Source of the DNA: a virus
Taxonomy: Duplodnaviria > Heunggongvirae > Uroviricota > Caudoviricetes
IMG/VR virus record: IMGVR_UViG_3300002756_000060
Location: 1 to 32,694 of that record
DNA length: 32,694 nucleotides
Strand: one strand, 5' to 3'
This document shows, in pieces, positions 1 through 22,592 of the stretch (positions are counted from its first letter, which is position 1; each line of letters begins with the position of its first letter). The translations under genes were made by a program, and so were the position numbers. The notes beneath the pieces are model-generated. The model did not search any database, had not been told where the DNA came from, and saw nothing but the letters and a program-made list of their open reading frames with translations.

Positions 1-36
1 CCAGCCGACGCGCATCTGCGCGTCGAGGAACGCCCG

Positions 37-354
37 ATGTATGGCGGGCGGGACATTCGCGTCGGATCGGAGATTTTCCTCTGGTCGTCCGAGACGCAGG
101 GCGGCGTCGGCTTGTGGGGCAAGGGAACCGTCACGGCGGTTGACCCTGGCGGTGCAAAGCCGGTGGTCACCGTCCGCGTCGATCAGCGCGTCAATTCCGG
201 CAACTTCGGCCTCAACGAGATCGCGCCGCATCGGGACAGCACGCAGGACACACCAATCGTCGGCCTGGCCCGCAAGCTCTACAAGCATGCCCACAACAAG
301 ATTGCCGAACTGACGAACGCCGAAGCAGAATTGCTGCAACAGAATTTCGAGTAG
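37..354 (+). CDS. hypothetical protein (possibly 5'-partial; reading frame is open back to window start)
   Basis: 105-aa ORF; no in-frame stop between position 1 and the ATG at 37; no recognisable motif. Confidence 0.3.
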   Translation: MYGGRDIRVGSEIFLWSSETQGGVGLWGKGTVTAVDPGGAKPVVTVRVDQRVNSGNFGLNEIAPHRDSTQDTPIVGLARKLYKHAHNKIAELTNAEAELLQQNFE

Positions 355-400
355 TTGAGCCGGGCATCATTCATCCCACCCATTTTCGAGGTCAAACCGC

Positions 401-828
401 ATGAGCACACCCGAAATCAATCTCACGAACCTGAAACGAGCCATCGTCATGCGGCTCGACCGCGAGGCGAAGGAGCATTCCAAGGGCCACCAGAAGAGCT
501 ACGCGAACCGCTATTCGATGCGATCCTCCGACGGCGCGCTGGTCGAGCTGATGTTCGAGAAGGGCGACAAGTCCCCCGGCAACCTCTGGGTCAGACAGGA
601 CTTCGTGAGGGACCTTCTGGATGGCAGCATTCCGTTCACCCCTTCGCCCGCGTCAAAGCTGTACCAGACCGTCGGCAAGACGGGCGAGAAGCAATATGGG
701 CGGCACTCGGCGCTTGAGGAGATGATGCAACTCGGCAAGGCAGACCTTGTCTGTTTCGCGTTGCGCAACATGGCGGATCTGGACCGGGTTCTGGCAACGT
801 TGGCACAGGTCACGAGGCCAGTGCGCGC

Positions 829-832
<4 letters not shown>
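401..832 (+). CDS. hypothetical protein
   Basis: 143-aa ORF; its stop overlaps the hsdR start (ATGA at 829-832), suggesting translational coupling; no recognisable domain. Confidence 0.45.
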
Positions 833-3960
<3,128 letters not shown>

Positions 3961-4220
3961 TCGTGGCCACAAAAATATTGGTGGCAAAGGCCGAAAATCG
4001 GGCATTCGCTGTGGTTTTCACCGAGGTCTACTTTGCGGATAAAGTGAGCTTTCGCTGGGCACGCGCGAGTGTGCGCTTATCCTAAAATGACTTCGGAGAG
4101 ACTGGGTCGTTTGGAACCGTTCGCTCACTCGGCCTTGTCTGGCGGCCATGGCCCTTCGCCGACGATCATCCGCGCGGAAGACCATCATTGCCGTTTTTTG
4201 AGAATACTACATAATGCACA

Positions 4221-5219
4221 GTGGAGGTGACTTTTTTGGATTCTTACCTGCAGATCGCGCAGACAGTTCTGAGATCGGCCCGCCGCCCTATGGGGGCAAA
4301 GGCCATTCTCGACGTGGCCTATCAAGCGGGAGTGGTGCCCAAGCACTTATACGGAAAGACTCAGCAAAAAACCCTCCAGGCACGGTTGAGCGAGGAAATT
4401 CTTCATCATCGCGAGACATCCCCGTTCTACCGGACCAAGCCAGGGCAGTTTTTCCTGACCGAGTTTCTCGATGCCGATGATGTCCCGGTGGAGTGGAAGA
4501 CGCCCTTTCCCGCCCGTCGTCGGACGCGCGATCTGACGCGTGACAACACGCTGGCCGTGAGGGGGTCATTCCTTGACCGGTGGCGCCGGAGGACGGCGGA
4601 CGCGGACAGTTTCTTCCAAGCGGCGGAGGCCGAGGGTGCGATGGCCTATATGCATCCCAAAGAGATGAGTGCGCAAGGCTACTGCGCCACGTGGACCTTT
4701 GCAATGGTCGTTAAGGACGACTGCACCCTTGCCTATAGGGTTGGGCGCTACCGCGACGATCGCGACAACTACGCCATGCAGCGATCGATCGGCTTCCCCG
4801 GTCCACTTACAGTCGAAGACATGACGCTGTTTTCGCGCGACCGGCTCGGAGCCGAGGACAGCGCCGCGGACGTTCTGATCCAAGATTTGGACCTTTCCTA
4901 TGCGTCCTTCCATGGCCGCGAAAAGCACCTCCCGAAGATCGACCATGTCATGGTCGTGGACGAGGCAGAGTCGCTGAACGTTGTGATCGTGCTGTCGTGG
5001 CAGTGTCCCGAATGGTTCGAGCCGACGACGCGGCGCATGTCGCTCAACGACCCGCACTGGCTCTGCACTTCGATCCGGCATAACGATTTAAATGACTTCG
5101 AACCGTGGAGTTCTAGGATTCTGGCCGCGCGGGCCGCGGATAGGGAGCGCACGACAGTTGGCCACGAAACGGATCACGGAACAGCAAGCGGCCTTTCTCG
5201 TGTCAGAGTTGACGAGTAG
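4221..5219 (+). CDS. HARE-HTH-like DNA-binding domain protein (N-terminal winged-helix; C-terminal ~230 aa of unknown function)
   Basis: N-terminus DSYLQIAQTVLRSARRPMGAKAILDVAYQAGVV...TLQARLSEEILHHRETSPFYRTKPGQFFLTEFL fits the HARE-HTH pattern; GGAGG at 4223-4227 upstream of alternative TTG at 4236, so the exact start (GTG 4221 / TTG 4236) is uncertain. Confidence 0.6.
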   Translation: MEVTFLDSYLQIAQTVLRSARRPMGAKAILDVAYQAGVVPKHLYGKTQQKTLQARLSEEILHHRETSPFYRTKPGQFFLTEFLDADDVPVEWKTPFPARRRTRDLTRDNTLAVRGSFLDRWRRRTADADSFFQAAEAEGAMAYMHPKEMSAQGYCATWTFAMVVKDDCTLAYRVGRYRDDRDNYAMQRSIGFPGPLTVEDMTLFSRDRLGAEDSAADVLIQDLDLSYASFHGREKHLPKIDHVMVVDEAESLNVVIVLSWQCPEWFEPTTRRMSLNDPHWLCTSIRHNDLNDFEPWSSRILAARAADRERTTVGHETDHGTASGLSRVRVDE

Positions 5220-6840
5220 GGAAGATTCTCGCCGTCAGAAGGTCGCTCTCCAAAATCTTAGCCGCCTTTATCGAACCGGCCATCGGTTCGCCCCGGAGAC
5301 TGCGCCGCGCGTTGAGCAGCAGATCGTAGGGCTGACCAACATGAGCCGCGACGAAAAGGTCGTGCGGTGGGGACTGAACACCCTTGCGCAACTTGGCACC
5401 AAGGACAGCGCCGAGAGCGTCGAGTTGGCAATCAAGCGCCACGAAACCAAGCCCGAGATCGTGGCGGCAGGCATCTCGGCCCTAGCCCGCCTGCGCGCGG
5501 GCCAACTGTCCGGCATTGCGGCTTTACGTAGCGTCCCGCCGGAGGTTCAGATGCTCGCGGCTATGCAAACCGTAGATCCCAAGCGGTTAGCCGTCGACGG
5601 GCTCCAAATCGACCTCGATGTGGCCGATCCAGAGATATTGAAGCTGGCTCTGATCGTCGTCGGGCTCGATCGGGATGTGCAGCATCTACTCCATCCCAAG
5701 CACGAAAACGGCGTCATTGTGCGGGAACTCGGGCAACACGACGATCCCATCGTGCGCCAATACGCAGTTTGGGCCGTGATCGAAAATCGTCGACTGTCGA
5801 TCGCCCATCTCGGCATCGATATCAATCGCATCGAAGATCAGCCAGCGAACGTGCAGTCGAAGCTACTGCAACTTGTCTCGTCCTCTCTGCCCGACCTCAA
5901 TCAACGGCATGAAGCAATCTTGCGGGGAGCCGATCTTCCTACAGTCGACGCGCGTGAGGGTCTCGCCAAAGGTCTTCTGCACGCACACTATGACGGCCTT
6001 GCAGAGATAACGCTGGACTGGTTCGATATTGAAGGAAGCGGCCGCGTGAAGTTGCATCTAGCAGAACATTTCGCGCGTTTCGCTGACGACCAGCCAAGTT
6101 ATCGCGTCAAGGCCTTGGAACTCGTCGAGAGCGGCGGCAACCTGCGCGAGCGGGTCCTGCTGGGTGCGGAAGGGACAGCCTTCTTCAGCGACATCAGGAA
6201 AGCGGAAGGGCAAGCATCACTGGGACTCTTTGGTCTCGGGGGAGACGAACAAATGGCACGACTGGAGAAGGCGGTTCGCATCATGAATAGGGAAACTGTG
6301 CTGGTGCTCAATGCGACACCCGACGACTTAGGGCGCATTCGGGCAGACAAGGAGGGCGCGTTGCTTGAGCGCCAATTGGAGACCGTTAAGAACCGGGAGC
6401 GCGATCTTCTCGTCGTTCAAAAGTTCGCGGTCCGCCTGCAGGACATCCAAAAGGAGCTCCTTAACCATCGGCCGAAGATCCTGCACTTCAGCGGGCATGG
6501 TGGCGTCGGCGTGCTGTGTTTTGAGAAGGACGACGGGACAGAGGCCTTGATCGCCGGAGACGTTCTTGCTGAGATTCTGGACGTCTATGGAGAGCTTGAG
6601 TGCCTAGTTCTCCACGCTTGCTACACAGAAAGTGTTGCGCGGGCCTGTGCGAAACACGTTGGCGTCGTAATTGGCTCGACAGATGCTATCGACGACGAAA
6701 CCGCTCCGAAGTTCACCTACGCATTCTATCAGGCCTTGGCGAACGGCCGTCCCTACGAGAACGCATTCAGGGCTGGACAGGTCGAAGTCAGAACCGCTAG
6801 CGAGGTGGCCGCAGCCTGCTACAAGCTGTTCACCCGCTAA
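5092..6840 (+). CDS. HEAT-like repeat protein with C-terminal CHAT (caspase-like) protease domain
   Basis: C-terminus ILHFSGHGG...ECLVLHACYTESVARACAKHVGVVIGSTDAIDDETAPKFTYAFYQALANGRPYENAFRAGQ matches the CHAT His/Cys dyad and FY..L..G tail; N-terminal helical repeats (VVRWGLNTLAQLG, IVRQYAVWAVIEN). Start uncertain: ATG 5092 overlaps the upstream gene by 128 nt; GTG 5200, TTG 5209 and ATG 5341 are alternatives. Confidence 0.7.
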   Translation: MTSNRGVLGFWPRGPRIGSARQLATKRITEQQAAFLVSELTSREDSRRQKVALQNLSRLYRTGHRFAPETAPRVEQQIVGLTNMSRDEKVVRWGLNTLAQLGTKDSAESVELAIKRHETKPEIVAAGISALARLRAGQLSGIAALRSVPPEVQMLAAMQTVDPKRLAVDGLQIDLDVADPEILKLALIVVGLDRDVQHLLHPKHENGVIVRELGQHDDPIVRQYAVWAVIENRRLSIAHLGIDINRIEDQPANVQSKLLQLVSSSLPDLNQRHEAILRGADLPTVDAREGLAKGLLHAHYDGLAEITLDWFDIEGSGRVKLHLAEHFARFADDQPSYRVKALELVESGGNLRERVLLGAEGTAFFSDIRKAEGQASLGLFGLGGDEQMARLEKAVRIMNRETVLVLNATPDDLGRIRADKEGALLERQLETVKNRERDLLVVQKFAVRLQDIQKELLNHRPKILHFSGHGGVGVLCFEKDDGTEALIAGDVLAEILDVYGELECLVLHACYTESVARACAKHVGVVIGSTDAIDDETAPKFTYAFYQALANGRPYENAFRAGQVEVRTASEVAAACYKLFTR

Positions 6841-7136
6841 AAGACTCAGGCTTGTCGATTTCTTCCACTCTGATTTGAGCTGACATGACAGCCGCGTTAT
6901 ATACTTCGCCCGTTCCTAACGACTCATTCTGCTTTTCAGAACGTGGCGGGAAGTAGGTCCAGATCGGATCGAAACGCCAACTTGGAAACCCGAGTTTCCT
7001 TGAACCAAACCTTCGCAGCGCATTCCTTGAAGGTCCCCTTGGGCCGAGAGTGCACCCTCCCATTGGTTCCTCCCTGGCCCCGAACGTATACGGGGGGGCG
7101 CAGCGCGGCAGTTTTCCAGCGTCTGGCCTTTTCACC

Positions 7137-7325
7137 GGGGAATCCAGGCGGAATCCACCTGCCGAGTCATCCTGGAAAAAGCGACTCATTATCAAGGACT
7201 TGCCGAATCACGACCTGGCCAGGGTGGATTCTTTTACCGAATCCAGGGAATCCAGTTCGCGGAAGCCACAGCGCCGGAAGCCAGCCAGCGGAAGCCACCT
7301 GATGGGAAGCCATTGAATCCAGGTG
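7137..7325. repeat. Array of at least 10 short GGAA(T/G)CCA motifs in both orientations
   Basis: ggggaatccagg, cggaatccacc, gggtggattc (inverted), ccgaatccaggg, gggaatccag, cggaagccaca, ccggaagccagcc, gcggaagccacc, gggaagccattg, tgaatccaggtg. Confidence 0.6.
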
Positions 7326-7335
7326 CATTTTTCGT

Positions 7336-7419
7336 TTGACAAAGCTGCCCCCCTTGACTCATACCTTGATAATCGAAGAATGGCGCCCGGAGGAAACTCT
7401 CGCGGGCGTTTTTGTTTTT
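7336..7419 (+). promoter_or_regulatory. Promoter-like TTGACA/TTGACT/GATAAT elements followed by a GC stem (CGCCCG 7384-7389 / CGGGCG 7403-7408) and T-run tttttgttttt; candidate leader attenuator or terminator
   Basis: TTGACA at 7336-7341, TTGACT at 7354-7359, GATAAT at 7368-7373; hairpin plus U-tract; the same arrangement is conserved at 22422-22510. Confidence 0.4.
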
Positions 7420-7505
7420 CCAACATCGCGGACCCTGATGCTGTCGCCGACCGGTGCGGTCGCGCTCTCGCGTCTGTCCGCGTCTCACCACAGCAGAGAG
7501 ACCCC

Positions 7506-8768
7506 ATGGACCTTGTCTTCGCGCCAAGCGAGATCGAGGCGTGGCCGATCGAGCGGCTGCGCCCCTATGCCCGCAATGCCAAGATGCATGGTGAGGACCA
7601 GGTGGCCAAGATCGCCGCCAGCATGGCGAAGTTCGGCTGGACGGTGCCCTGCATGGTGTCCGACGATGGCGAGTTGATTGCCGGGCATGGCCGGGTACTG
7701 GCGGCCGCAATGCTGGGGCTGAAGGATGTGCCGGTGATCCGGCTGGCGCATCTGGACGAGGCCGAGCGGCGGGCCTACCGGATCGCCGACAACAAGCTCA
7801 CGGAACTCGGCGATTGGGACGAGACCGTGCTGCGCGACGAGATCGCGGGGCTGCTGGCCGAGGATTTCGACCTGTCGCTGCTGGGGATCGGCGACGATGA
7901 TCTGGATGCGCTGCTGCGCGACCCCGAAGCGCAGGACGGCGACGGCCCGATCGAGGGCGAGGACGACGTTCCGGAACCGCCGGTCACGCCGGTCTCGGTG
8001 GCGGGCGATCTCTGGCAGCTTGGCGCGCATCGACTGATCTGCGGCGACAGCACTGCGGCGGACGTGGTCGGGCGCCTGCTGGGCGATGTGCGCCCCCTGC
8101 TGATGGTGACCGATCCGCCCTATGGCGTGGAATACGATCCGTCCTGGCGAAACCAGGCGGGCGCCGCCAAGACCAAACGCACCGGCAAGGTGCTCAACGA
8201 TGACCGCGCCGACTGGCGCGAGGCCTGGGCGCTGTTTCCGGGCGACGTCGCCTATGTCTGGCACGGTGCGCTGCATGCCGCCGAGGTGGCGGAGTCGCTG
8301 ATCGTCTCGGGTTTTGCCATCCGCTCGCAGATCATCTGGGCCAAGGACCGGCTGGTGCTCAGCCGAGGCGATTACCACTGGCAGCATGAACCGTGCTGGT
8401 ATGCGGTGCGTACCAAGGGCAAGGGCCACTGGGCCGGCGATCGCAAGCAGACGACGCTGTGGCAAATCGCAAACAAGGATCAGGATGTGGCCACCGTCCA
8501 CGGCACGCAAAAGCCCGTCGAGTGCATGCGCCGCCCGATCCTCAACAACTCGAACGCCGGTCAGGCGGTCTATGAGCCCTTCATGGGATCGGGCACGACG
8601 CTGATCGCGGCGGAAACCACCGAACGGATCTGCTACGGGGTCGAGCTCAACCCGGCCTATGTCGATGTCGCCGTCAAGCGCTGGCAGTCCTTCACCGGCG
8701 CGGAAGCGGTGCTGGCGGACACCGGCGAGAGCTTTGCCAGCCTCAAGGCCAAACGGATGGCTGCATGA
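7506..8768 (+). CDS. ParB-like nuclease domain fused to DNA methyltransferase (beta-class, motif IV DPPY; N6-adenine type predicted)
   Basis: N-terminal ParB-type motif (RPYARNAKMHG...IAGHGRVLAA...YRIADNKLTELG); motif IV LMVTDPPYG; motif I YEPFMGSGTTLIAAE. The ORF is open from 7323 but the start is called at ATG 7506 by alignment with the paralog at 22593. Confidence 0.85.
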   Translation: MDLVFAPSEIEAWPIERLRPYARNAKMHGEDQVAKIAASMAKFGWTVPCMVSDDGELIAGHGRVLAAAMLGLKDVPVIRLAHLDEAERRAYRIADNKLTELGDWDETVLRDEIAGLLAEDFDLSLLGIGDDDLDALLRDPEAQDGDGPIEGEDDVPEPPVTPVSVAGDLWQLGAHRLICGDSTAADVVGRLLGDVRPLLMVTDPPYGVEYDPSWRNQAGAAKTKRTGKVLNDDRADWREAWALFPGDVAYVWHGALHAAEVAESLIVSGFAIRSQIIWAKDRLVLSRGDYHWQHEPCWYAVRTKGKGHWAGDRKQTTLWQIANKDQDVATVHGTQKPVECMRRPILNNSNAGQAVYEPFMGSGTTLIAAETTERICYGVELNPAYVDVAVKRWQSFTGAEAVLADTGESFASLKAKRMAA

Positions 8769-10132
8769 GCATGCATTTGCGTCCCAGCCAGATCGAGTTC
8801 TGGCCGCTGGACCGCCTCAAGCCCTATGCCCGCAACGCCAAGACCCATGACGCCGATCAGGTGGCGCGGATCGCCGCCAGCATGGCCGAGTTCGGCTGGA
8901 CCGTGCCCTGCCTGGTTGGCGACGATGGCGACCTGATCGCGGGCCATGGTCGCGTTCTTGCCGCCGCGCAGCTGGGCCTGGCGGAGGCACCCGTCATCGT
9001 GCTGGGCCATCTGACCGAGGCGCAGCGCCGGGCCTATCGCATCGCCGACAACAAGCTGACCGAGTTGGGCGGCTGGGACGAGGGCCTGCTGCTGGAGGAA
9101 CTGCGGGGGCTTATGGCCGCCGAGTTCGACCTCGGGCTGATCGGCATCCCCGAGGACGAGCTGGATGCCCTGCTGCGCGACGCCGATGACGACAGTGTGC
9201 CCATCGACGACGACACAGCCGATACCATCCCGGAGCCCCCGGCCGAGCCGATCACCCGGCCCGGCGATATCTGGGCGCTGGGCGCGCACCGGCTGATCTG
9301 CGGCGATGCCACCGACGCGGATGTCGTGGCCAGGCTTATGGAGGGCGCGCAGTCGTCGCTGATGTTCACCTCGCCGCCCTACGCCCAGCAGCGCGACTAT
9401 GGCGCGGCCAGGGAGACGGTGGGCGACTGGGACGCGCTGATGCAGGGCGTCTTCGCGGCGGCACCGGTCACCGACGCGGCCCAACTGCTGGTCAATCTCG
9501 GCCTCGTGCATCGCGACGGTGAGTGGCTCCCCTATTGGGAGCGCTGGGTCGAGTGGATGCGCAGCTCTGGCTGGCGGCGCTTCGGCTGGTATGTCTGGGA
9601 TCAGGGGCCGGGCCTGCCCGGCGACTGGAATGGCCGCCTCGCGCCCTCGCACGAGTTCATCTTCCACTTCAACCGCCAACCCCGGAAGCCCAACAAGACG
9701 GTGCCGTCCAAGCACGCGGGCGAAACCTTGGGCGGCGGTGGGCTGCGCGGGGTCAACGGCACCGTCCACGCCAAGCGAGGGGCCGGCAACGCGATCCAGA
9801 GCCATCGCATCCCGGACTCGGTGTTTCGTATCATGCGCCACAAGGGCGGGCTGGGTGCTGCCGGATCGCATCCGGCCGTGTTCCCGGTGGCGCTGGTCGA
9901 GGCCGTGCTGACCGCGTTCAGCGATCCAGGCGACCTGATCTACGAGCCGTTCTGTGGCTCCGGCACGCAGATCGTTGCCGCCGAACGCGCTGGGCGGCGC
10001 TGCTTCGCGATGGAGCTGGATCCGGTCTATTGCGACGTCGCCATGCGGCGATGGGAACTGGCGACGGGGCGGACGGCGCAGTTGGAAAATCGCAACGAGA
10101 CCACCATTGGCAAGGAGACAAAACAGCAATGA
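8765..10132 (+). CDS. ParB-like nuclease domain fused to DNA methyltransferase (beta-class, motif IV SPPY; N4-cytosine type predicted)
   Basis: ParB-type N-terminus (KPYARNAKTHDADQVARIAASMAEFGW...); motif IV LMFTSPPYAQQRDYG; motif I YEPFCGSGTQIVAAE; ATGA overlap with the upstream gene at 8765-8768. Confidence 0.85.
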   Translation: MSMHLRPSQIEFWPLDRLKPYARNAKTHDADQVARIAASMAEFGWTVPCLVGDDGDLIAGHGRVLAAAQLGLAEAPVIVLGHLTEAQRRAYRIADNKLTELGGWDEGLLLEELRGLMAAEFDLGLIGIPEDELDALLRDADDDSVPIDDDTADTIPEPPAEPITRPGDIWALGAHRLICGDATDADVVARLMEGAQSSLMFTSPPYAQQRDYGAARETVGDWDALMQGVFAAAPVTDAAQLLVNLGLVHRDGEWLPYWERWVEWMRSSGWRRFGWYVWDQGPGLPGDWNGRLAPSHEFIFHFNRQPRKPNKTVPSKHAGETLGGGGLRGVNGTVHAKRGAGNAIQSHRIPDSVFRIMRHKGGLGAAGSHPAVFPVALVEAVLTAFSDPGDLIYEPFCGSGTQIVAAERAGRRCFAMELDPVYCDVAMRRWELATGRTAQLENRNETTIGKETKQQ

Positions 10133-10638
10133 TCATCGACACCCCGATCTGGCGAAACGCCGACCTCATTCGGATCATTCCGATCACACGCGCGGACCTG
10201 AACCAGGCCATATCCCGAAACGACTTTCAGCCTGAAAACACACCCAAGCCCGGAAAGGCGCGCTGGTACAGCTGGAGAGACGTGGTGTCGGTTGCTGCCG
10301 CACAGGACTTGCGCAAACTTGGCTTTGGTCCGTCCATCGCATTTAGGCTGGTGCAAAACCACCTGTCACCGTTTCTGCGGGGTAGCATAGACGCCCCGGA
10401 CGATTGCGCAGGAGTGCTTTGGCTTATCCGTCCAAGTGACGACCATCTCAACATTGAGACCCCGTGTGAGTTCCTGCGCCACACCGAATACGAGGCACTC
10501 CTTGTCACGCCAGACGAGAGCGCCTGCATCATCGTGAATATCGGTCGCATTGCAGCACGCGTTCGCGATGACCTGCAGGCGACCGAGACCGCCAAGGTCA
10601 TCCGTGAGGAATTTCAGATCACGGGACCGGTGATGTGA
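10129..10638 (+). CDS. hypothetical protein (169 aa)
   Basis: ATG 10129 overlaps the upstream stop (ATGA); AAGGAGA Shine-Dalgarno at 10112-10118; conserved paralog at 25216-25725. Confidence 0.6.
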   Translation: MIIDTPIWRNADLIRIIPITRADLNQAISRNDFQPENTPKPGKARWYSWRDVVSVAAAQDLRKLGFGPSIAFRLVQNHLSPFLRGSIDAPDDCAGVLWLIRPSDDHLNIETPCEFLRHTEYEALLVTPDESACIIVNIGRIAARVRDDLQATETAKVIREEFQITGPVM

Positions 10639-10844
10639 CCCAATCGCGCGGCATGTCGCTGATCGAGGCCATCACCAATGTCGCGGTGGGCTATGCGCTG
10701 GCCGTCGCCGCGCAGATCGCGGTTTTCCCGTGGTTCGGCCTGCATGCGAGCATTGGCGAGAACCTCACCATCGGCGCCCTGTTCACCGGCATCTCGCTGC
10801 TGCGCAGCTACGCGCTGCGCAGGCTGTTCGAACGCTGGTGGTAA
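10635..10844 (+). CDS. small hydrophobic (probable membrane) protein, 69 aa
   Basis: GTG start overlapping the upstream stop (GTGA); two hydrophobic stretches (VAVGYALAVAAQIAVFPWFG, LTIGALFTGISLL); conserved paralog at 25722-25937. Confidence 0.5.
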   Translation: MTQSRGMSLIEAITNVAVGYALAVAAQIAVFPWFGLHASIGENLTIGALFTGISLLRSYALRRLFERWW

Positions 10845-10853
10845 CGCGCGGGA

Positions 10854-11309
10854 TCAAGCCGTGTCGAGCTTGTACACGGTGCCACGCCCGTCAACTTTCT
10901 CGGCAGTGACGGGCAGGCCCAGCTTCTTCTTGAGCCCGCCCGAGATCAGGCCACGTGCACTATGCGGCTGCCACGAGGTCGCCTCGACAATCTCGGCGAT
11001 GGATGCGCCCTCGGGCCGCTGAATGAGCGCGATGATCTGCGCCTGCTTCGTGCCCGAGCGGATGGCGACGGGTTTTGCGGTGTCCGCAGCTTCGGGCGTC
11101 GGTGCGACATCGGGCTTGGGCTTTCCCTTCCGCGCGCTGGCGACAGCGCTGACCACCACCGGCTCGATCCCGATGGCCTCCAGCCCGGCCTCGGTGGCGA
11201 TCAGCGTGGTGCCATGACCGTCACCGGTCTCGCGCCAGAGCGGCTCGCCGCGGCGGCTGTCGGCATCGACCTCCTCGATCCAGCCATTGGTGATCATGCG
11301 AGTGAACAC
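10854..11309 (-). CDS. DUF3489-like protein, probably a 5'-truncated copy
   Basis: Aligns with the C-terminal ~150 aa of the 193-aa paralog at 26938-27519 (WRETGDGHGTTLIATEAGL...SIAEIVEATSW...GRGTVYKL); start abuts a divergent gene at 11312 with no promoter space. Confidence 0.5.
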   Translation of the reverse strand: MFTRMITNGWIEEVDADSRRGEPLWRETGDGHGTTLIATEAGLEAIGIEPVVVSAVASARKGKPKPDVAPTPEAADTAKPVAIRSGTKQAQIIALIQRPEGASIAEIVEATSWQPHSARGLISGGLKKKLGLPVTAEKVDGRGTVYKLDTA

Positions 11310-11311
11310 CG

Positions 11312-12058
11312 ATGAGCCTGCATCCCGGTACGGATCGCTACAACCCGGCTGGGAACAGCGACTTCACCCGCAAGGCGGAGGCGCTGGCGCTGGGCATCCC
11401 CAACTGGTCGACACCGAAGGCGACAGACGGCGCGAAGGGTGGGCCGGGCCAGAGCTATGGCTCGGGCGGGACGCCACCCCTGCCCGCGCAGGCGGCACAA
11501 TGGCAGACGCCGGTGGCCGACGACCAGATGGATCGGCTGCGTGGCAAGATCAACAGCCGGGGCGAGCCGAAGCTATCGGCACAGGCGCTGCAATGGCCGA
11601 CCCCGGCGGCGCAGAACTGGAAGGGGAGCAGCCCGGCCAGCGTGACGCGGGCGGATGGCAAGAGCCGGATGGATATCCTGCATTACCGGGCGGAGCAGGG
11701 CTTCACCCACCCGGCCCCGGCGATCATGCGGCATGGGCGGCAGTGCTCGCGACACGCCCCGATCTCACGCCCGCTGTGGGCTTCGATGATTGCCTCGCAT
11801 GGGCGCGGCGCATGTCGGCGGCTCCTGAAGGGCCGCTCACGGCGGCGGCTGAACCCGCTCTTCGTCGGATGGTTGATGGGCTGGCCCATCGGTCACGCGC
11901 TCTGCGCCTGCTCGGCAACGGAGTTCATCCTCTGGCAGCAGCGCATGCGTGGCGCGCTCTCGCAGCTGCCCATGGCCTCGGGCCCGTGGATCTGGCGGCC
12001 ATCGGACGAGGCCCAGCGCCCCGCGCAGATGACGCTGTTTGAGGTGTGGTCTGAATGA
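11312..12058 (+). CDS. hypothetical protein with three W-x-TP motifs
   Basis: 248-aa ORF; NWSTPKATDGAKGG, QWQTPVADDQ, QWPTPAAQNWKGSS; stop overlaps the next ATG (ATGA at 12055-12058). Confidence 0.5.
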   Translation: MSLHPGTDRYNPAGNSDFTRKAEALALGIPNWSTPKATDGAKGGPGQSYGSGGTPPLPAQAAQWQTPVADDQMDRLRGKINSRGEPKLSAQALQWPTPAAQNWKGSSPASVTRADGKSRMDILHYRAEQGFTHPAPAIMRHGRQCSRHAPISRPLWASMIASHGRGACRRLLKGRSRRRLNPLFVGWLMGWPIGHALCACSATEFILWQQRMRGALSQLPMASGPWIWRPSDEAQRPAQMTLFEVWSE

Positions 12059-12717
12059 CGATACAAGGAAAGATCGGGCGGCCAGGCGGCCAAAAAACCA
12101 AACGCGCGCTGGGCGTGCAGGCGGCGCTGGAATGGGCCTTTGGCGTGGAAAAGGCACAGCTGGAACTGCCCCTACCGAAGGGCGTGGCCGAGGAAGGCTT
12201 CGGCTTTGGGCTCGAATACGTGCTGCTGCAACGCGCCATACTTGGCTGCAAGATCGACGGCGGCCAACACAAGTTGGGTGGCTATGTGCACGTGGACGCC
12301 GAGGTGATCGCCGCCACCGTCGCGGGCATGCCCGACACCTTGGGTGGTAAGCGCATGGCGATCCGGGTCGCGGAACTGGCACGCGCCGGGCTGACCCCGG
12401 ACTGGATGCCCAGGGCCGTGCCGCGCTGCGTGCCCGTCGATATCAAGCGCAACCGGCATGGTGATCGCGCGGTCAGCGTCGTGGTCGGCACCGCCCGCGC
12501 GCTGATCAGCGGCAAGTGGCGCATCGTCGAGGTCCGCGCCTGCCCCGTCACCTTCACCCCAACCCCACACCAGATCGACGCCGCCCGCCAAGCCTATGAC
12601 GACTGGTGGCAGGCACTGGACTGGGTACGGGATGGGCTTATCGCGGGCGACATGCTGCGGGAGATTGATGTGACAGGGGCGATGCCGAGCGTGCGGCCGT
12701 GGGCTGCAAAGCCTTGA
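12055..12717 (+). CDS. hypothetical protein (220 aa)
   Basis: Translationally coupled to the upstream gene; no recognisable motif. Confidence 0.5.
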   Translation: MTIQGKIGRPGGQKTKRALGVQAALEWAFGVEKAQLELPLPKGVAEEGFGFGLEYVLLQRAILGCKIDGGQHKLGGYVHVDAEVIAATVAGMPDTLGGKRMAIRVAELARAGLTPDWMPRAVPRCVPVDIKRNRHGDRAVSVVVGTARALISGKWRIVEVRACPVTFTPTPHQIDAARQAYDDWWQALDWVRDGLIAGDMLREIDVTGAMPSVRPWAAKP

Positions 12718-12778
12718 TCTTGCGCTCGGCACAAAGAATTCACTCGAAGCGCTGGCATTCAGCAAGTAAGCCTAAGGT

Positions 12779-15652
12779 ATGTTCACCGCTTACCATGGCA
12801 AATATACCGCATATGATCTTACGAAGCTGGCGCCGCCCGGCTCGGACGATCAGTTGTCAATGTCGTTGTTCGATGCATCGGTTGATCTCAATCCTCATCA
12901 GATTGAGGCCGCGATGTTCGCGCTTCAATCGCCGCTGGCTGAAGGCGCGATACTTGCGGATGAGGTCGGCCTCGGCAAAACCATCGAGGCAGGCATTGTC
13001 CTTTGCCAGAAATGGGCTGAGCGAAAACGGAAACTAATCATCATCTGCCCAGCGGCCATTCGACAGCAGTGGGCTGCAGAACTGACGAACAAGTTCAATC
13101 TTCCCGCAGTCGTCATTGACGCTCGGACCTATCGACAGATGAAGATGGAAGGCATTCCATTCCCTTTGTCACAGAAGCGGATCGTCGTGCTATCCTATCA
13201 TTATGCTGCAAAGCTTCAGGATGAGCTTCGGCAAGTCGATTGGGATCTGGTTGTTATCGACGAAGCGCACAAGCTTCGTAACTCGTACCGACCCAGCAAT
13301 CGCATCGGGCAAGCTCTTCAACGAGCAGTCGAAGGCCGCAAAAAGCTCCTGCTGACGGCTACTCCCCTCCAAAACAGCTTGATGGAGATATTCGGGCTTA
13401 CGAACTTCATTGATCCAAACATTTTCGGCGATGCCAACAGCTTCCGGTCGAAGTATGTGAATGCCGGTGGCGATCTGCCCGAGCTTCGCGCAAGGCTCGC
13501 GGATTTCTGCAAGCGCACGCTTCGGAAGCAGGTTCTCGAGTATGTCAAATATACTCAGCGCCGTGCCATCACGCAGCCATTCTCGCCGGCGGAGAACGAG
13601 CAGGCGCTGTATGACGGCATTACGCGCTTCCTACAACGAGAGGACACCTATGCAATACCCTCTCAACAGCGCCATCTAACCGTTCTTATCCTGCGGAAGC
13701 TTCTCGCTTCGTCATCACAGGCCATCGCAGGGACGCTTGAGACCCTACGCGCCCGCTTGGTAGCCCTGCAGAAAGGGGAACCGGTAAAGGATGATCTGGC
13801 GGAGGTGATTTCATTCGAGAACGAGCTCGAAGAAGAAATTCTCGACGAATGGGATGATGACGATGCGCAAGACCCCACAGGGGCCGAGCAAATCGACTTC
13901 GCCAAGCTTCGCCTGGAAATCGACGATATTTCAGGTCTGATCCAGCTTGCACATTCGATCCAGATCGATACTAAGTCCAAAGCGCTGCTACAGGCTCTCG
14001 AGATAGGCTTTTCGGAGCAGGAGCGGATGGGCGCACAGAGAAAAGCCCTGATCTTCACAGAGTCGCGCCGCACCCAAGACTATCTCCGCGATTTCCTCGC
14101 GCGCTACGGTTACGCCAATCAAATTGTGACCTTCAGTGGCACTAATTCCGACCGCAAGGCACAGGAAATTTACGAGCGCTGGCTTACCGATCCGAAGAGC
14201 GCCGAGCAGATTACAGGATCGCGCGCCATCGATGTTCGTGCTGCACTGATAGAAGAATTCCGCGACAATGCCTCGATCATGATCGCAACCGAGGCCGCCG
14301 CCGAGGGTGTCAACCTGCAATTCTGCTCGCAGGTCATCAACTACGACCTTCCGTGGAACCCGCAGAGGATCGAACAGCGCATCGGACGCTGCCATCGCTA
14401 TGGGCAGACGCATGATGTGATCGTCGTGAACTTCCTGAACGAACGCAACGATGCAGATAAACGGGTTCACGCGCTTCTAACCGAGAAGTTCAATCTGTTC
14501 GATGGTGTATTTGGGGCTTCAGACGAGGTCTTGGGAACGATTGAGTCCGGCGTCGACTTCGAAAAGCGCATTCTGGCGATTTACCAGGACTGCCGCACTC
14601 CGGAGGCCATCGCCGCAGCTTTTGATGAACTTCAGACCCAGCTCGAGGAACAAATTCGGAGCCGAATGGAGGATACAAGGCGGGCCCTGCTGGAGAACTT
14701 CGACGAGGATGTCCACGCCCGCCTGAAGCTGCGCCTCGCTGACGCCCGCGAACAGTTGGACCGTGTCGGGCGCCGGTTTTGGGATCTGACCACTGCTATC
14801 CTCGCCGACAAGGCCAAATTCGATGAACCAAATCTGGCCTTCGACCTTCTGGCCCCGCCGACCCGCGACCTGCGACCGGGCCGCTATCACCTGATCTCGC
14901 GGAACTCGGCCGCAGACCCGGCCAAGAACGAACACGGCTATTTCCTCTACCGGCTGTCGCACCCTCTTGGCGAGCATGTCATTGAATCGGCCAAGGCCGC
15001 TGACACGCCAGTGGCCGAATTGCGGTTCGATGTGACCAATCACCCCACACGCGTGGCCATCGTCGAGGCGCTGAAAGGGCGGCGCGGCTGGCTGACGCTG
15101 CGCAAACTTGCGGTGACGACCTTCGAGACCGAGGAATACCTGCTATTCTCGGGCATCGACGACAATGGTCGCTCCATCGACCACGAAGCCTGCGCCAAGC
15201 TGTTCTCGGTCGGTGCTGGCGTTCACCCCATCGACATGCCCGCCCCTGCCATCGCCGACCTCCTTCAGGCTGAGGCCGAGCAGCATGCCAAAGCCACCTT
15301 GAACCGGTCGCTGGATGCCAACAACAAGCACTTTGCCTCGGCCCGTGAAAGGCTGGAGCGCTGGGCTGAGGACAAGGTCTACGCGGCAGAGAAGGCGCTG
15401 AAGGACACCAAGGAACAGATCAAGGGGGTGCGTCGCGAGGCGCGGGCAGCTACCACACTCGAAGAAGAAGCCGCCATCCAAGCCAAACTGCAGGAACTGG
15501 AACGTCGCCAGCGCAAGCAGCGGCAGGAAATCTTCAACCAGGAAGACGAAGTGGCCGACAAGCGGGACGAGTTGATCGCCAACCTTCAAAAGCGGCTCAG
15601 CCGTGGCCACTCGGTTGAATCGCTGTTTACGGTCCGCTGGGCCGTCGTGTAG
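12779..15652 (+). CDS. SNF2-family (SF2) helicase/ATPase
   Basis: Motif I LADEVGLGKTIEAG; motif II LVVIDEAHKLRN; motif III LLLTATPLQNSLMEIFGL; C-terminal helicase motifs ALIFTESRRT, IMIATEAAAEGVNLQ, DLPWNPQRIEQRIGRCHRYGQ; AT-richer codon usage than neighbours. Confidence 0.9.
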   Translation: MFTAYHGKYTAYDLTKLAPPGSDDQLSMSLFDASVDLNPHQIEAAMFALQSPLAEGAILADEVGLGKTIEAGIVLCQKWAERKRKLIIICPAAIRQQWAAELTNKFNLPAVVIDARTYRQMKMEGIPFPLSQKRIVVLSYHYAAKLQDELRQVDWDLVVIDEAHKLRNSYRPSNRIGQALQRAVEGRKKLLLTATPLQNSLMEIFGLTNFIDPNIFGDANSFRSKYVNAGGDLPELRARLADFCKRTLRKQVLEYVKYTQRRAITQPFSPAENEQALYDGITRFLQREDTYAIPSQQRHLTVLILRKLLASSSQAIAGTLETLRARLVALQKGEPVKDDLAEVISFENELEEEILDEWDDDDAQDPTGAEQIDFAKLRLEIDDISGLIQLAHSIQIDTKSKALLQALEIGFSEQERMGAQRKALIFTESRRTQDYLRDFLARYGYANQIVTFSGTNSDRKAQEIYERWLTDPKSAEQITGSRAIDVRAALIEEFRDNASIMIATEAAAEGVNLQFCSQVINYDLPWNPQRIEQRIGRCHRYGQTHDVIVVNFLNERNDADKRVHALLTEKFNLFDGVFGASDEVLGTIESGVDFEKRILAIYQDCRTPEAIAAAFDELQTQLEEQIRSRMEDTRRALLENFDEDVHARLKLRLADAREQLDRVGRRFWDLTTAILADKAKFDEPNLAFDLLAPPTRDLRPGRYHLISRNSAADPAKNEHGYFLYRLSHPLGEHVIESAKAADTPVAELRFDVTNHPTRVAIVEALKGRRGWLTLRKLAVTTFETEEYLLFSGIDDNGRSIDHEACAKLFSVGAGVHPIDMPAPAIADLLQAEAEQHAKATLNRSLDANNKHFASARERLERWAEDKVYAAEKALKDTKEQIKGVRREARAATTLEEEAAIQAKLQELERRQRKQRQEIFNQEDEVADKRDELIANLQKRLSRGHSVESLFTVRWAVV

Positions 15653-15685
15653 ACCAGCCGAGTAACATCAAGGAAAACAAGAACA

Positions 15686-18600
15686 ATGAGCAATTTTGAC
15701 GCCCTCGTTGCCAAGCTGCGCGAAATCTTCCAGATCGACCGGCCTGACCTCGATTTTGGCGTCTACCGTATCCTCAACGCCCGCGCGGGGGAAATCGAGG
15801 ATTACCTGTCCAAGCGTCTGAAGGCGCGGGTGGCCGAAGCACTGGCTGCCGGTGCTGCGGCCAATACCGAAACGCTGAAGGCCGCGATTGAGAAAGCGCG
15901 CGAAGCTGCTGAGGCCGCAGGGTACAATTCAGACGAAGCTCCGAGAGTTCTGAGCCTCCAGAAGGAACTTGCAGCCGCCAGCGGGGCCACGTCGGAGCAT
16001 GAAAATCAGGTCTTCTCGCACCTGTTGACCTTCTTCTCGCGCTACTACGACAAGGGCGATTTCATCAGCCAGCGCCGGTACAAGGGTGATACCTATGCCA
16101 TCCCCTATTCCGGGGAAGAGGTCGTGCTGCACTGGGCGAACCGCGATCAGTATTACATCAAAAGCGGAGAATCCTTCTCGAACTTCAGCTTCAAGCTGGA
16201 TGACGGTCGACTTGTGCATTTCCGCCTTGTCGCTGCCGATACGGCCAAAGACAACCGCAAGGATAACGACAAGGAGCGCCGCTTCGTTCTGGCCACCGAG
16301 CGCACGGTCACGCGCCTTGACGAGGAGGGCGAGGGTTTTGAAGAAACCATCCGTCCGATCGAGGAAGAGGATGGCGCGCTGGTCATCCGGTTCGACTTTG
16401 CAGCACAGCCCAAAGGGACCAAGCAAGAAAAACTGGTTGAGGCGGCGGTGGAAACCATTCTGGACAGCGAGACTTTCAAATCGAGATGGCTGGAACTGAC
16501 CAACCGCGCGCCGACGGAAAAGAAACCGCAGCGCACCTTGCTGGAAAAGCACCTGACGACCTACACGCAAAAGAACACCGCCGATTACTTCATTCACAAG
16601 GATCTGGATGGTTTTCTGCGGCGCGAACTGGATTTCTACATCAAGAACGAGGTGATGAACCTGGACGATGTGCAGGAGGCCGGGGCCTTTGCCGCCATCG
16701 AAAGAAACCTACGGATGATCCAATGCCTGCGGGCCATCGCTCTGGACCTGATTACCTTTCTGGCCAGCATCGAGAATCTCCAGAAAAAGCTATGGCTGAA
16801 AAAGAAATTCGTGGTGGCGGCGCAGTATTGCGTGACGCTGGACCGGGTGCCGGAGGCGCTTTACCCGGCTATCGCGGCGAACCCCGCGCAATGGGCGCAG
16901 TGGCATGATCTGGGGATGCGGGCATCCGCGGCGCCGGGGACGGTGGAGGATCTGAAAGCCGCGCCCTTCCTGATGGTGGACACCGCGCTCTTTGATGCGG
17001 GTTTCCGGGCTGACCTGTTGAAGGCGATCCCCGATCTGGATGCTAGCCTCGACGGGCTGCTGGTTCATGGGGACAATTTTCAGGCGCTGAACCTTTTGCA
17101 GGATCGATACCGGGAAAAGGTCAAATCAATCTATATCGACCCGCCTTACAACACTGACGCAGGACCGATCAGTTACAAGAACGGCTACCGGAGTTCGTCG
17201 TGGGTTGCCATGATGCACGACCGCGTGAAACTCGGGCGTGAGCTATTGCCTCTCGACGGGTTGCTCACCGCCACGATCGATGACTATCAGTACCGTGAAT
17301 TGCACTTCGCCATTGAAGAGGTTTTTGGCGCTCAAAACCTCGCAGGTACCGTTGTAATCCGAATGAACCCGTCTGGCCGCCCGCTCCCACAAGGCTTCGC
17401 ACAGTCCCACGAATACGCAATCGTCGCGAAGCGGTCAGACTTAGCTCAGATCGAGAACTTACCGAGAAGCGAGAAGCAGAACGCCAGATATAAGCACCGC
17501 GATGACGACGGTCAGATGTACATGTGGGAACTGTTCAGAAAGCGCGGATCGAATTCCGAAAGAACTGACCGGCCTTCGCTGTATTATCCGATCTATCTCC
17601 GGGGTGAGGACTTTCGGGTTCCCCGAATGACTTATGATCCTGATCGCAAGGATTGGGATATTCATGAAGAACCGGATACCGACGAAAGCGTCATCTACCC
17701 TATTGACGACAACGGAACCTTGCGCACGTGGCGTGGCTCACCGGATGATTTGATCGATAATCCAAGCAACTATCGTGTGAAGATCGAGGACAGCAAAGTC
17801 ACGGTCTACTACAAGTTTCGCCCCAACTCTGAGGGTGTGCTTCCGCTCACCAACTGGATCGATGCCAAATACTCCGCAACGGAGCATGGAACGGGATATC
17901 TCAAGAACTTCTTTTCGGAATACAACGTTTTCTCCTATCCGAAGTCGATCTACGCGGTTGAAGACTGCATCAGGGTTGGTGGCGCAACGGCCAATGCAAC
18001 CGTCCTCGACTATTTTGCAGGATCGGGCACGACTGGACACGCAGTCATAAACTTGAACCGGTCCGACCAAGGGTCTCGAAAGTACATCTTGGCCGAGCAA
18101 GGCGCTTACTTCGAAACTGTCATTAAGCCACGCTTAAAGAAGGCAGTGTTTTCTGCTGATTGGTCAGAGGGTAAACCCACCGCCCCCGAAACCGGCATCA
18201 GCCATGCCTTCAAGGTACTCAAGATCGAGGGCTATGAGGACACGCTGAACAATCTTGATCTGAAGCGTTCGGAGGCGCAGGCCAGTCTTCTGGAACGGTT
18301 CAGCGCCGACAAGCGCGACGACTATTTGATGCGCTACATGCTGGATGTCGAGGGACGCGGCTCGCTCCTGTCCATCTCGGATTTCCGCAAGCCCTTTGAC
18401 TACTCGCTCAAGGTCGCCGTCGACAGCGCCGGGGCCTGGGAGGAGCGCAAGGTCGATCTGGTCGAGACCTTCAACTACCTGATCGGCCTGACCGTCCGCC
18501 ATATCGACATCCAGCTTCGCCAAGGCTTCGCCACGGTCGAGGGCTGGTTGCCAACGGGTGAGCGGACCCTGATCCTGTGGCGCGACTGCGATAAAATCGG

Positions 18601-18805
18601 CTATGAGGAATTGACGCGCCTGTGCGACAAACTGGCGATTAACCCGGCCGACAGCGAATACGACGTGGTCTACATCAACGGCGACCACAATATCCCCTCG
18701 GTGGTGGAAACGACCGAGGAAGAGGGCAGCGTTATCAAGAAGCTGATGCTGCGCCAGATCGAACCCGCCTTCCTCGATGCGATGTTCAACGTGGATGACG
18801 TCTGA
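15686..18805 (+). CDS. Type III Mod-like beta-class DNA methyltransferase with ~480-aa N-terminal extension
   Basis: LLVHGDNFQALNLLQDRYREKVKSIYIDPPYNT (motif IV) precedes VLDYFAGSGTTGHAV (motif I); AAGGAAA Shine-Dalgarno at 15670-15676; 1039 aa. Confidence 0.85.
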   Translation: MSNFDALVAKLREIFQIDRPDLDFGVYRILNARAGEIEDYLSKRLKARVAEALAAGAAANTETLKAAIEKAREAAEAAGYNSDEAPRVLSLQKELAAASGATSEHENQVFSHLLTFFSRYYDKGDFISQRRYKGDTYAIPYSGEEVVLHWANRDQYYIKSGESFSNFSFKLDDGRLVHFRLVAADTAKDNRKDNDKERRFVLATERTVTRLDEEGEGFEETIRPIEEEDGALVIRFDFAAQPKGTKQEKLVEAAVETILDSETFKSRWLELTNRAPTEKKPQRTLLEKHLTTYTQKNTADYFIHKDLDGFLRRELDFYIKNEVMNLDDVQEAGAFAAIERNLRMIQCLRAIALDLITFLASIENLQKKLWLKKKFVVAAQYCVTLDRVPEALYPAIAANPAQWAQWHDLGMRASAAPGTVEDLKAAPFLMVDTALFDAGFRADLLKAIPDLDASLDGLLVHGDNFQALNLLQDRYREKVKSIYIDPPYNTDAGPISYKNGYRSSSWVAMMHDRVKLGRELLPLDGLLTATIDDYQYRELHFAIEEVFGAQNLAGTVVIRMNPSGRPLPQGFAQSHEYAIVAKRSDLAQIENLPRSEKQNARYKHRDDDGQMYMWELFRKRGSNSERTDRPSLYYPIYLRGEDFRVPRMTYDPDRKDWDIHEEPDTDESVIYPIDDNGTLRTWRGSPDDLIDNPSNYRVKIEDSKVTVYYKFRPNSEGVLPLTNWIDAKYSATEHGTGYLKNFFSEYNVFSYPKSIYAVEDCIRVGGATANATVLDYFAGSGTTGHAVINLNRSDQGSRKYILAEQGAYFETVIKPRLKKAVFSADWSEGKPTAPETGISHAFKVLKIEGYEDTLNNLDLKRSEAQASLLERFSADKRDDYLMRYMLDVEGRGSLLSISDFRKPFDYSLKVAVDSAGAWEERKVDLVETFNYLIGLTVRHIDIQLRQGFATVEGWLPTGERTLILWRDCDKIGYEELTRLCDKLAINPADSEYDVVYINGDHNIPSVVETTEEEGSVIKKLMLRQIEPAFLDAMFNVDDV

Positions 18806-22122: not shown

Positions 22123-22124
22123 GC

Positions 22125-22150
22125 CGGGGCAAGTTGAGCTCCCCCCCGGC
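22125..22150 (+). terminator. Weak GC hairpin immediately after the Res-like gene stop
   Basis: GCCGGGG (22125-22131) pairs with CCCCGGC about 13 nt downstream; no clear U-tract. Confidence 0.2.
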
Positions 22151-22225
22151 ATGGTTCCTCCCGGGCGCGATCCGTATACGGGGGGGCTGAGCGCGGCATT
22201 TCGCTAGCGACTGGCTTTTTCACCG

Positions 22226-22427
22226 GGGAATCCACTTGGAAGCCACCCCGGCGGCCCTGCCGGAAATTGTGACTCAATTTCAGAACCTTACCCGACAGCA
22301 TCGGTGGCCAGGGTGGATTCCTTTTGGAAGCCAGGGAATCCACTTGGTGGGTTCTTTTGGCCAGAAAAGCCACCCTCAGGCCAGATCGGCAGAACACCTT
22401 GATTCCAAGCCACAAAATGGATTGACA
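22226..22427. repeat. Array of GGAA(T/G)CCA motifs in both orientations (paralog of 7137-7325)
   Basis: gggaatccacttggaagccacc occurs twice; ggtggccagggtggattcc (inverted); gattccaagccac. Confidence 0.6.
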
Positions 22428-22510: not shown

Positions 22511-22592
22511 ATCGCGGACCCTGACACAGCAACCGGCGTTTGCCGGGGCTTGCATTGGTCTGTCCGCCCTGCCCCGGATCCGAACCCCACCC

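Follow-up and report, generated by a model that had tools for sequence, protein, structure and literature searches.

What does a tailed phage gain from two adjacent methyltransferases (MTases), each fused to a ParB-like domain, when one carries DPPY and the other SPPY as its catalytic motif IV? We address this question for a stretch of 32,694 nucleotides (hereafter, the window) from a Caudoviricetes virus (IMG/VR record IMGVR_UViG_3300002756_000060), for which a reading made from the sequence alone (the sequence-only reading) had proposed that one phage module writes two different protective modifications as an anti-restriction strategy. We call the DPPY enzyme A and the SPPY enzyme B; the window holds two copies of the pair, in modules 1 and 2:

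7506–8768, plus strand: MTase A1, 420 aa, with DPPY, HGTQKP and FMGSGT; ParB/Srx N-domain (residues ~8–135), acidic linker and beta-class core; predicted N6-adenine enzyme.
8765–10132, plus strand: MTase B1, 455 aa, with SPPY-x2-QR-x-Y, HPAVFP and FCGSGT; ParB/Srx N-domain and beta-class core; probable N4-cytosine enzyme.
22593–23855, plus strand: MTase A2, DPPY, 88.6% identical to A1 by sequence comparison.
23852–25219, plus strand: MTase B2, SPPY, 86.4% identical to B1, with an ATGA overlap with A2.

The answer that we favor, with confidence only slightly above even, is that A and B form a co-expressed orphan pair that is recruited to phage DNA by its ParB domains and that, by adding both N6-methyladenine (m6A) and N4-methylcytosine (m4C) before packaging, widens the protection of this DNA from restriction. 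Specifically, A and B would be made together during lytic growth, their ParB domains would place the two enzymes on phage DNA while it is replicating or concatemeric, A would write m6A and B would write m4C prior to packaging, and the virion DNA, on entering its next host, would already resist a wider range of restriction systems than a single mark could cover.

The two genes are arranged as the sequence-only reading had described, since the open reading frames (ORFs) 7506–8768 and 8765–10132 share the sequence ATGA, such that the A1 stop codon overlaps the B1 start by 4 nt; the same holds for A2 and B2. Motif IV lies in the context MVTDPPYGV in A1 and MFTSPPYAQ in B1. Both proteins match the Pfam family N6_N4_Mtase (PF01555) well above its gathering cut-off of 26.7 bits (A, 69.4 bits; B, 72.9 bits), and both display the permuted motif order with IV before I (DPPY at residue 203 and FMGSG at ~358 in A; SPPY at residue 203 and FCGSG at ~396 in B), with a larger variable insert in the core of B1. 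A and B are ~50% identical overall, ~70% identical in the N-domain and <40% identical in the catalytic core, and a single PHROG family (phrog_498) takes in both, while the PADLOC model PDLC03229 likewise matches both.

To place these genes among their relatives, we scanned one genome per species, which yielded more than 568 loci with relatives of B, and examined the best 80, which come from many Rhodobacterales genera. In these 80 loci, all 70 A homologues have DPPY and all 80 B homologues have SPPY, and motif I is conserved. Both enzymes appear catalytically intact on alignment: A and B each retain motifs I and IV and the acidic residue that follows beta-2, and both are under purifying selection, with ratios of nonsynonymous to synonymous substitution (dN/dS) of 0.11 for A and 0.14 for B that are low in every domain. 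A start of A at GTG 7323 was rejected because a hairpin and T-run (described below) fall within the extension and because all gene calls and homologues begin at ATG 7506. The minus-strand ORFs 7485–8510 and 8657–10129 were also set aside as genes; they are antisense to the conserved MTase frames and were taken, from their position, as by-products of high G+C content.

Motif IV gives the first indication of which base each enzyme modifies. The rule in use is that a serine in motif IV marks N4-cytosine (N4C) enzymes and an aspartate marks N6-adenine (N6A) enzymes (PMC8885841, PMC10406627, PMC12898733), and mutation of SPPY abolishes 4mC formation by the enzyme N4CMT (PMC8885841). The core of B has relatives in 722 clusters at 50% identity (E up to 1e-30), and among representatives of the best 150 of these, the motif region is covered in 134, of which ~132 carry SPPY as part of a conserved TSPPYxxQRxY. 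When a profile built from 27 diverse B cores was compared to the PDB, the best matches were TTHA0409 (2.4e-29), rotifer N4CMT (5.9e-22) and M.PvuII (1.1e-20), all ranked above M.BceJIV, M1.HpyAVI, CcrM, MboIIA and RsrI. Moreover, the motif HPAxFP is common to B, TTHA0409, N4CMT and M.PvuII, and A has HGTQKP at that position. For A, the solved structure that matches best is that of M1.HpyAVI, an N6A enzyme aligned over the whole core (E 1e-10), and M.MboIIA is also among the best. From these motifs and relatives, A likely makes m6A and B likely makes m4C. The D-versus-S difference on which the sequence-only reading had relied is conserved in the B family and in all of the 32 pairs examined below. 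We drew no inference that A acts at GANTC: the study of Paracoccus prophages (PMC6536676) ties GANTC to the protein YP_009146999 of Aurantimonas phage AmM-1, but the A homologue of that phage is a different protein, YP_009147004.

The ParB domain that had been assigned to both MTases was supported by several kinds of evidence. Although the Pfam model ParB_N matches the N-domains of A and B below its cut-off (E 0.002 to 0.005), the PHROG ParB-like families phrog_620 and phrog_15396 match with E-values of 1e-45 to 1e-50, matches over residues 8–150 having 1e-48 to 1e-50, and precomputed PF02195 matches are recorded for many homologues. We also predicted the structure of B1 with AlphaFold2, using a shallow alignment (27 sequences, 65–89% identity) that gave a mean per-residue confidence (pLDDT) of 68.6. 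The predicted N-domain (pLDDT 75–92) finds Noc, ParB with CTP-gamma-S and PadC as Foldseek matches, and the B1 model also matches TTHA0409, CcrM, M.BceJIV, N4CMT, RsrI and PvuII (Foldseek E 4e-11 to 3e-9; target template-modeling score ~0.44–0.64). GHGR and ADN in the N-domain align with GERR and VEN, respectively, of Spo0J/ParB; residues G60, H61, G62, R63, D95 and N96 are invariant. However, binding of CTP cannot be assumed, because the first arginine of GERR is replaced by glycine here.

The pair sits in a fixed position relative to the packaging genes, where it opens the packaging region of temperate Rhodobacterales phages with a gpA-type terminase, a family that is widespread. In ~78 of the 80 loci A precedes B, usually with the 4-nt overlap, and is followed by a DUF3489 gene on the minus strand and by the genes for the small terminase subunit (TerS) and a gpA-type large subunit (TerL), the latter visible downstream in ~60 of 80 loci. 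In the window, module 2 lies ~4.9 kb upstream of the TerL start at 30071, and module 1 is arranged alike in its native contig, L002. Thus the supposed phage module is a packaging-region module, with TerS and gpA-type TerL downstream. The genes concerned are:

29554–30123, plus strand: TerS (phrog_57), part of the "Tls" end of a ParB-Tls locus.
30071–32104, plus strand: TerL, gpA-type, part of the same "Tls" end.
10129–10638, plus strand: 169-aa ORF overlapping the B1 stop codon, without a family match, present in some related loci.
10635–10844, plus strand: DUF7220 protein, 69 aa (family match, phrog_4276), the last gene of the plus-strand unit.
25216–25937, plus strand: homologues of these two genes in module 2 (169-aa ORF, 25216–25725; DUF7220, 25722–25937).

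We found no nuclease signature in family searches of the ORFs that adjoin the pair (the 169-aa ORF without a family match, DUF7220 and DUF3489), and the Type I and Type III systems that lie upstream have their own modification subunits. Since the neighboring ORFs include no nuclease gene and the upstream restriction-modification (R-M) systems supply their own modification subunits, the A/B pair is best called a pair of orphan MTases rather than a Type II or Type IIS R-M system.

Such a pair belongs to the usual content of the ParB-Tls locus published by Iyer, Zhang, Burroughs and Aravind (2013, as cited in PMC6536676 and PMC4738411), in which modification genes lie between a ParB domain and TerL and the ParB domain may be fused to an MTase, as here. 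The concept is general and computational, and does not include the SPPY-with-DPPY pair, N-domain co-evolution or an upstream array. It includes the idea, cited by later authors, that ParB steers the modification of phage DNA as it is packaged (PMC6536676, PMC4738411). The closest described relatives are in Paracoccus: a survey of 59 Paracoccus prophages reported 36 ParB-fused MTases, all upstream of terminase (Decewicz et al. 2019, PMC6536676), and its supplementary annotation of overlapping pairs already labels the "DPPY motif" and the "SPPY motif." In the pairs pd49_p22/p23, pd17_p43/p42 and pd47_p44/p43, a 420-aa DPPY protein overlaps a ~440–455-aa SPPY protein by 4 nt, as in the window, and these pairs share with A and B the same host order, the ParB N-domains and the position upstream of the terminase genes. 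Close homologues, with 85–87% identity to B, occur in genomes of Paracoccus yeei, whose strain CCUG 46822 has two loci, and of other members of the genus. The window differs in that its A and B are other alleles, from uncultured Roseovarius/Roseinatronobacter-like hosts; in the Paracoccus paper the D/S pairing is not discussed, no base is assigned and no activity is reported.

Similar pairs occur at greater distance. Acidithiobacillus phage AcaML1 has an overlapping ParB-fused pair, Gp24 (SPPY) and Gp25 (DPPY), upstream of gpNu1 and gpA, with core identities of 57% between B and Gp24 and 44% between A and Gp25; unlike the pair studied here, it has the SPPY gene first, its host is of a different class, and both proteins are annotated only as "DNA modification methylase." A Ralstonia phage carries the same kind of ParB-MTase pair. 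By description, the protein BCE_0392 of a Bacillus cereus ATCC 10987 prophage is also alike, being a ParB domain fused to an amino-MTase with an MTase gene adjoining, but it is a single ParB-MTase beside a C5-MTase, not an S/D pair, and it makes weak m6A (PMC3459991). The papers examined on Pseudomonas ANT_H14, C. difficile 078, S. equi, Serratia phages and Bibersteinia do not mention ParB-fused MTases.

We examined whether the combination of one DPPY and one SPPY enzyme is a rule, and how the two domains of each enzyme have evolved, in viral loci (L094–L152, L001 and L093). Among IMG/VR contigs, 32 loci from ~10 lineages encode two ParB-fused MTases, and each of the 32 has one SPPY and one DPPY enzyme; no pair of the same type (two SPPY or two DPPY) was found among them. 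The SPPY gene is first in 28 of 32 loci, and the DPPY gene is first only in the Rhodobacterales lineage. The N-domains of the two partners are 57–84% identical, which exceeds the mean identity of same-type N-domains across lineages (32–55%) in 10 of 10 lineages and the maximum in 6. The cores behave in the opposite way: partners are 30–40% identical in 9 of 10 lineages (57% in L129), and in those nine this is below the mean same-type identity across lineages. In a neighbor-joining tree, the N-domains of partners are sisters in two lineages (bootstrap, 100%) and make up clades at the level of the lineage in a further two, and a split of N-domains into S and D types appeared in 0 of 100 replicates. 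The core tree unites the SPPY cores in a single clade, with one DPPY core misplaced, and has a clean S/D split in 43 of 100 replicates.

These trees and identities point to an N-domain that has probably been repeatedly homogenized or replaced within each phage, that is, to concerted evolution, and to catalytic cores of A and B that are apparently old paralogues. The likeness of the N-domains could come from selection for a shared partner or DNA site, or from plain gene conversion of tandem paralogues. Recent gene conversion within the window was rejected: the DNA encoding the N-domain of A1 is 74% identical to that of both B1 and B2 and 83% identical to that of A2. We also note a natural fusion protein, P0194 (749 aa), which has no ParB domain; in it, a B-type core whose motif is the degenerate SPNY shares one chain with another beta-class MTase, which has DPPY.

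Several observations weigh against the reading in which A and B place two different marks that protect phage DNA. The preference of the B profile for N4C enzymes is small, with an E-value gap of 1–3 orders of magnitude (N4C enzymes at 1e-22 to 1e-21, N6A enzymes at 1e-20 to 1e-19), and its top match, TTHA0409, is deposited only as a "putative" methylase. Foldseek searches with B mix N4C and N6A enzymes, and the B1 model is mediocre (mean pLDDT as above), with residues 280–372, the target-recognition insert, unreliable. The S/D rule is stated for "most" enzymes rather than for every one (PMC8885841), and the annotation of the Paracoccus pairs leaves both partners as "N4-cytosine or N6-adenine" (PMC6536676). 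BCE_0392, the one ParB-fused MTase with experimental data among the papers examined, gave only weak m6A, protected against none of ~30 restriction enzymes, and was reported to have a nicking-associated activity (PMC3459991). Finally, both phages represented in the window carry restriction systems of their own just upstream, and anti-restriction need not be the sole role of the pair; and expression during lytic growth rests on promoter and terminator features at the level of consensus.

We considered that A and B might be one functional unit, perhaps a heterodimer formed through the ParB N-domains, that methylates both strands of one asymmetric site, the first with m6A and the second with m4C, as Type IIS M1/M2 enzymes do. 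Such pairs, e.g., M1/M2.MboII and M1/M2.HpyAVI, are adjacent beta-class amino-MTases that act, sometimes as m6A and m4C enzymes, at one asymmetric site, and M1.HpyAVI, the closest solved relative of A, is the m6A half of an m6A/m4C pair. Like these, A and B are adjacent beta-class amino-MTases, with M1.HpyAVI and M.MboIIA among the best solved relatives of A; unlike these, which come with a restriction enzyme and have no ParB domain, A and B have no nuclease gene identified beside them. A tandem m4C pair for ACGGC has also been described (PMC5154133, PMC3459991). A single unit fits the strict composition of the pairs (SPPY with DPPY, never two alike, in 32 loci of ~10 lineages), a 4-nt overlap that would favor co-production of A and B, the co-evolution of partner N-domains seen in the tree above, the REBASE-based annotation of the Paracoccus pairs as "putative Type IIS" (PMC6536676), and the existence of naturally fused proteins, such as P0194, in which a B-type core is joined to an MTase of the DPPY type.

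This proposal is weakened, however, by loci in which the genes are separated or one is lost. In 7 of ~78 loci (L033, at 7504–8001; L031, L042, L046, L076, L077 and L086), an ORF of ~165 aa without a recognized family lies between A and B and removes the 4-nt overlap. In six others (L023, L045, L061, L083, L091 and L090), A is split or frameshifted (five loci) or absent (one locus) and B is intact, although some of these are metagenome-assembled genomes in which sequencing errors are possible. Therefore, A and B can be uncoupled. In addition, a Type IIS nuclease was not identified next to the pair, lineages differ in which of the two genes comes first, and the N-domain likeness could come from gene conversion of tandem paralogues, for which selection is not required. 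We hold the proposal of one functional unit to be unlikely, with perhaps a minor chance of being correct; at the level of the marks themselves, two independent protective marks are one reading of the pair, and a single asymmetric site methylated on both strands fits equally well.

We also considered that the difference in motif IV might not be a difference in the base modified, such that both enzymes are adenine MTases, perhaps with relaxed or no specificity, or that B is only weakly active in vivo. The S/D rule is a tendency, not a law (PMC8885841), and the prophage MTases Nham_0569 and BCE_0392 in the MoDMP study were multi-specific or weak (PMC3459991). Moreover, the nearest NCBIfam models for both A and B are adenine MTases (matched far below their cut-offs), and Foldseek places CcrM and M.BceJIV beside TTHA0409 as matches of B. 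If the residue were functionally neutral, however, the strict S-with-D composition of the pairs would be hard to explain; the serine hardly varies across clusters at 50% identity, which number in the hundreds; B falls with the SPPY/SPPF enzymes, having HPAxFP in common with them; and B is under purifying selection. Thus we judge it improbable that A and B modify the same base.

Directly upstream of each pair lies a set of conserved elements, which are:

7064–7135, plus strand: GC-rich non-coding element, ~70 nt, GGTTCCTCCC..GTATACGGGGGGGCGCAGCGCGGC, at the left edge of homology; a copy lies at 22152–22225, in a repeated stretch that spans 22152–22282.
7139–7321, plus strand: array of ~9 direct 8-mers GGAA(T/G)CCA with spacing of 9–15 bp, from an exact-match count.
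7336–7381, plus strand: promoter-like element, TTGACA ... TTGACT, 16 nt, AAGAAT, a consensus match only, conserved across loci.
7383–7419, plus strand: GC-rich hairpin followed by TTTTTGTTTTT (T-run), ~90 nt before the A start; -22.6 kcal/mol, z -3.3.
22152–22505, plus strand: upstream region of module 2, by homology to module 1, with the GC-rich element, GGAAKCCA repeats (22227–22342), the promoter-like element, and the hairpin and T-run (22469–22505; -24.1 kcal/mol).

The GC-rich element has the pattern GGTTCCTCCC..ATRCGGGGGGGCGCRAGCGCGGC..CTAGCG across lineages, and is found in over 30 Rhodobacterales loci as well as in distant lineages with the S-then-D order (L100–L115), where it precedes the first MTase by ~100–200 nt and whose proteins are only ~50% identical. 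It matched no Rfam family at the gathering threshold and gave no blastn match in 50,697 phage records; it is possibly a cos-like, regulatory (regulator-binding) or ParB-binding site. The repeats are confined to these two places, since all 12 exact matches to GGAAKCCA in the window fall at 7139–7312 or 22227–22342 (2.55 expected by chance), and at least 3 copies precede A in 54 of 58 related loci. Other lineages (L096, L102, L106 and L110) have direct-repeat arrays of their own (GGTTACCACC, GGTTCGCAC and GGTTTGCA), such that the sequence is lineage-specific and the position is conserved; candidates for binding the array are the small terminase, a regulator and the ParB domains.

The hairpin is kept from locus to locus, with changes in one arm paired by changes in the other, as in L040 (GGAGG/CCTC to GGAAG/CTTCC), and distant lineages also have a hairpin directly before the first MTase. 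With its T-run, it looks like a promoter-proximal terminator, and its location between the promoter-like element and the A start suggests terminator/antiterminator control of the MTase genes.

We considered, too, that the main role of the pair might not be anti-restriction, but a mark for packaging, processing through ParB nicking or recruitment of terminase at the array, or epigenetic control of phage genes. The position next to the terminase genes is fixed, and the conserved GC-rich element and the array lie directly upstream of the pair. In a lambda-type phage, this is where cos/cosB-like sites would be. BCE_0392 was reported to have a nicking-associated concatenation activity (PMC3459991), and a link to packaging was proposed by Iyer et al., as cited in PMC6536676 and PMC4738411. 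A structural role, however, does not need the two catalytic cores, which are both fully conserved and under selection; the repeats could be sites for a regulator or the small terminase unrelated to the MTases; and no phage record with mapped ends contains the GC-rich element. We consider such a role quite improbable as the main one. Equally slight is the chance that the N-domains of A and B stay alike within each phage because the two enzymes load together, perhaps as a heterodimeric, nucleotide-gated ParB-type clamp, at the lineage-specific array and slide on concatemers while placing m6A and m4C ahead of the terminase, which, if true, would make the pair a "sliding" dual-mark MTase coupled to packaging, not two ordinary site-specific enzymes.

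The sequence-only reading had counted four such MTase genes overall, and this count holds for the window (A1/B1 and A2/B2) but not for any single phage, because two prophages meet at 11305/11306. Specifically, window positions 1–11305 are 100.000% identical to L002, a 59.6-kb metagenome contig, in which the MTase pair is followed by DUF3489, small minus-strand genes, TerS, gpA-type TerL, ccdAB and a portal gene, whereas positions 11306–25652 are 100.000% identical to a different, 72-kb contig, L007, in which an integrase, early genes, 248-aa and 220-aa proteins, an SNF2 helicase and Type III Mod and Res precede A2 and B2. Each half is thus identical to a separate public contig with one pair, and therefore each natural phage carries one A/B pair. 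The features at and near the junction are:

11305/11306, no strand: junction of two related prophage sequences, without microhomology.
10854–11305, minus strand: DUF3489 gene, 5' end lost at the junction (151 aa in the window; 188 aa in L002).
26938–27519, minus strand: DUF3489 gene of phage 2, full-length, in the opposite direction to the MTases.

The junction lies 6 nt 5' of the next start codon, and a 40-mer across it had zero exact matches in public collections of metagenomes, viruses and genomes. Either the two prophages lie in tandem with a deletion, or the window is a chimera made in assembly. The 248-aa protein that begins just after the junction (11312–12058, phrog_27243) has repeated W-x-T-P motifs and no MTase catalytic domain, and partially matches the target-recognition region of a C5-MTase family (phrog_1008). 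A gene for an NYN-domain (RNase-like) protein (26026–26712) lies between DUF7220 and DUF3489 of module 2, and is not in module 1.

To the left of each pair we observed a different set of defense genes. The phage-1 set (1–6840) comprises Type I hsdS/hsdR, a HARE-HTH protein and a CHAT-domain protein, and the phage-2 set (12779–22122) comprises an SNF2 (DrmD-like) helicase and Type III Mod and Res. Homology among related loci begins abruptly at ~7055, at the GC-rich element, with variable cargo to its left, and because of this abrupt start the region left of the pair looks like an exchangeable hotspot for defense cargo.

The class of MTases that are fused to ParB and encoded upstream of terminase had been described before, and annotations of Paracoccus prophages already record the DPPY/SPPY pair; what goes beyond the published annotation is the S/D pairing rule, the co-evolution of the N-domains, and the upstream repeat array and hairpin. 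Because the pairs are always SPPY with DPPY and the partner ParB domains co-evolve, our analysis suggests that the two enzymes work as a unit, which gives a testable handle on what a ParB domain does in an MTase; together with the conserved upstream elements, these properties make the role of the ParB domain open to experiment. The interchangeable cargo to the left of the pair, either Type I R-M with CHAT or SNF2 with Type III R-M, makes that region a usable landmark for phage-borne defense genes. The family is very large, with thousands of homologues, and the methylome of one induced lysogen would annotate a prophage pair that is common in marine and soil Rhodobacterales.

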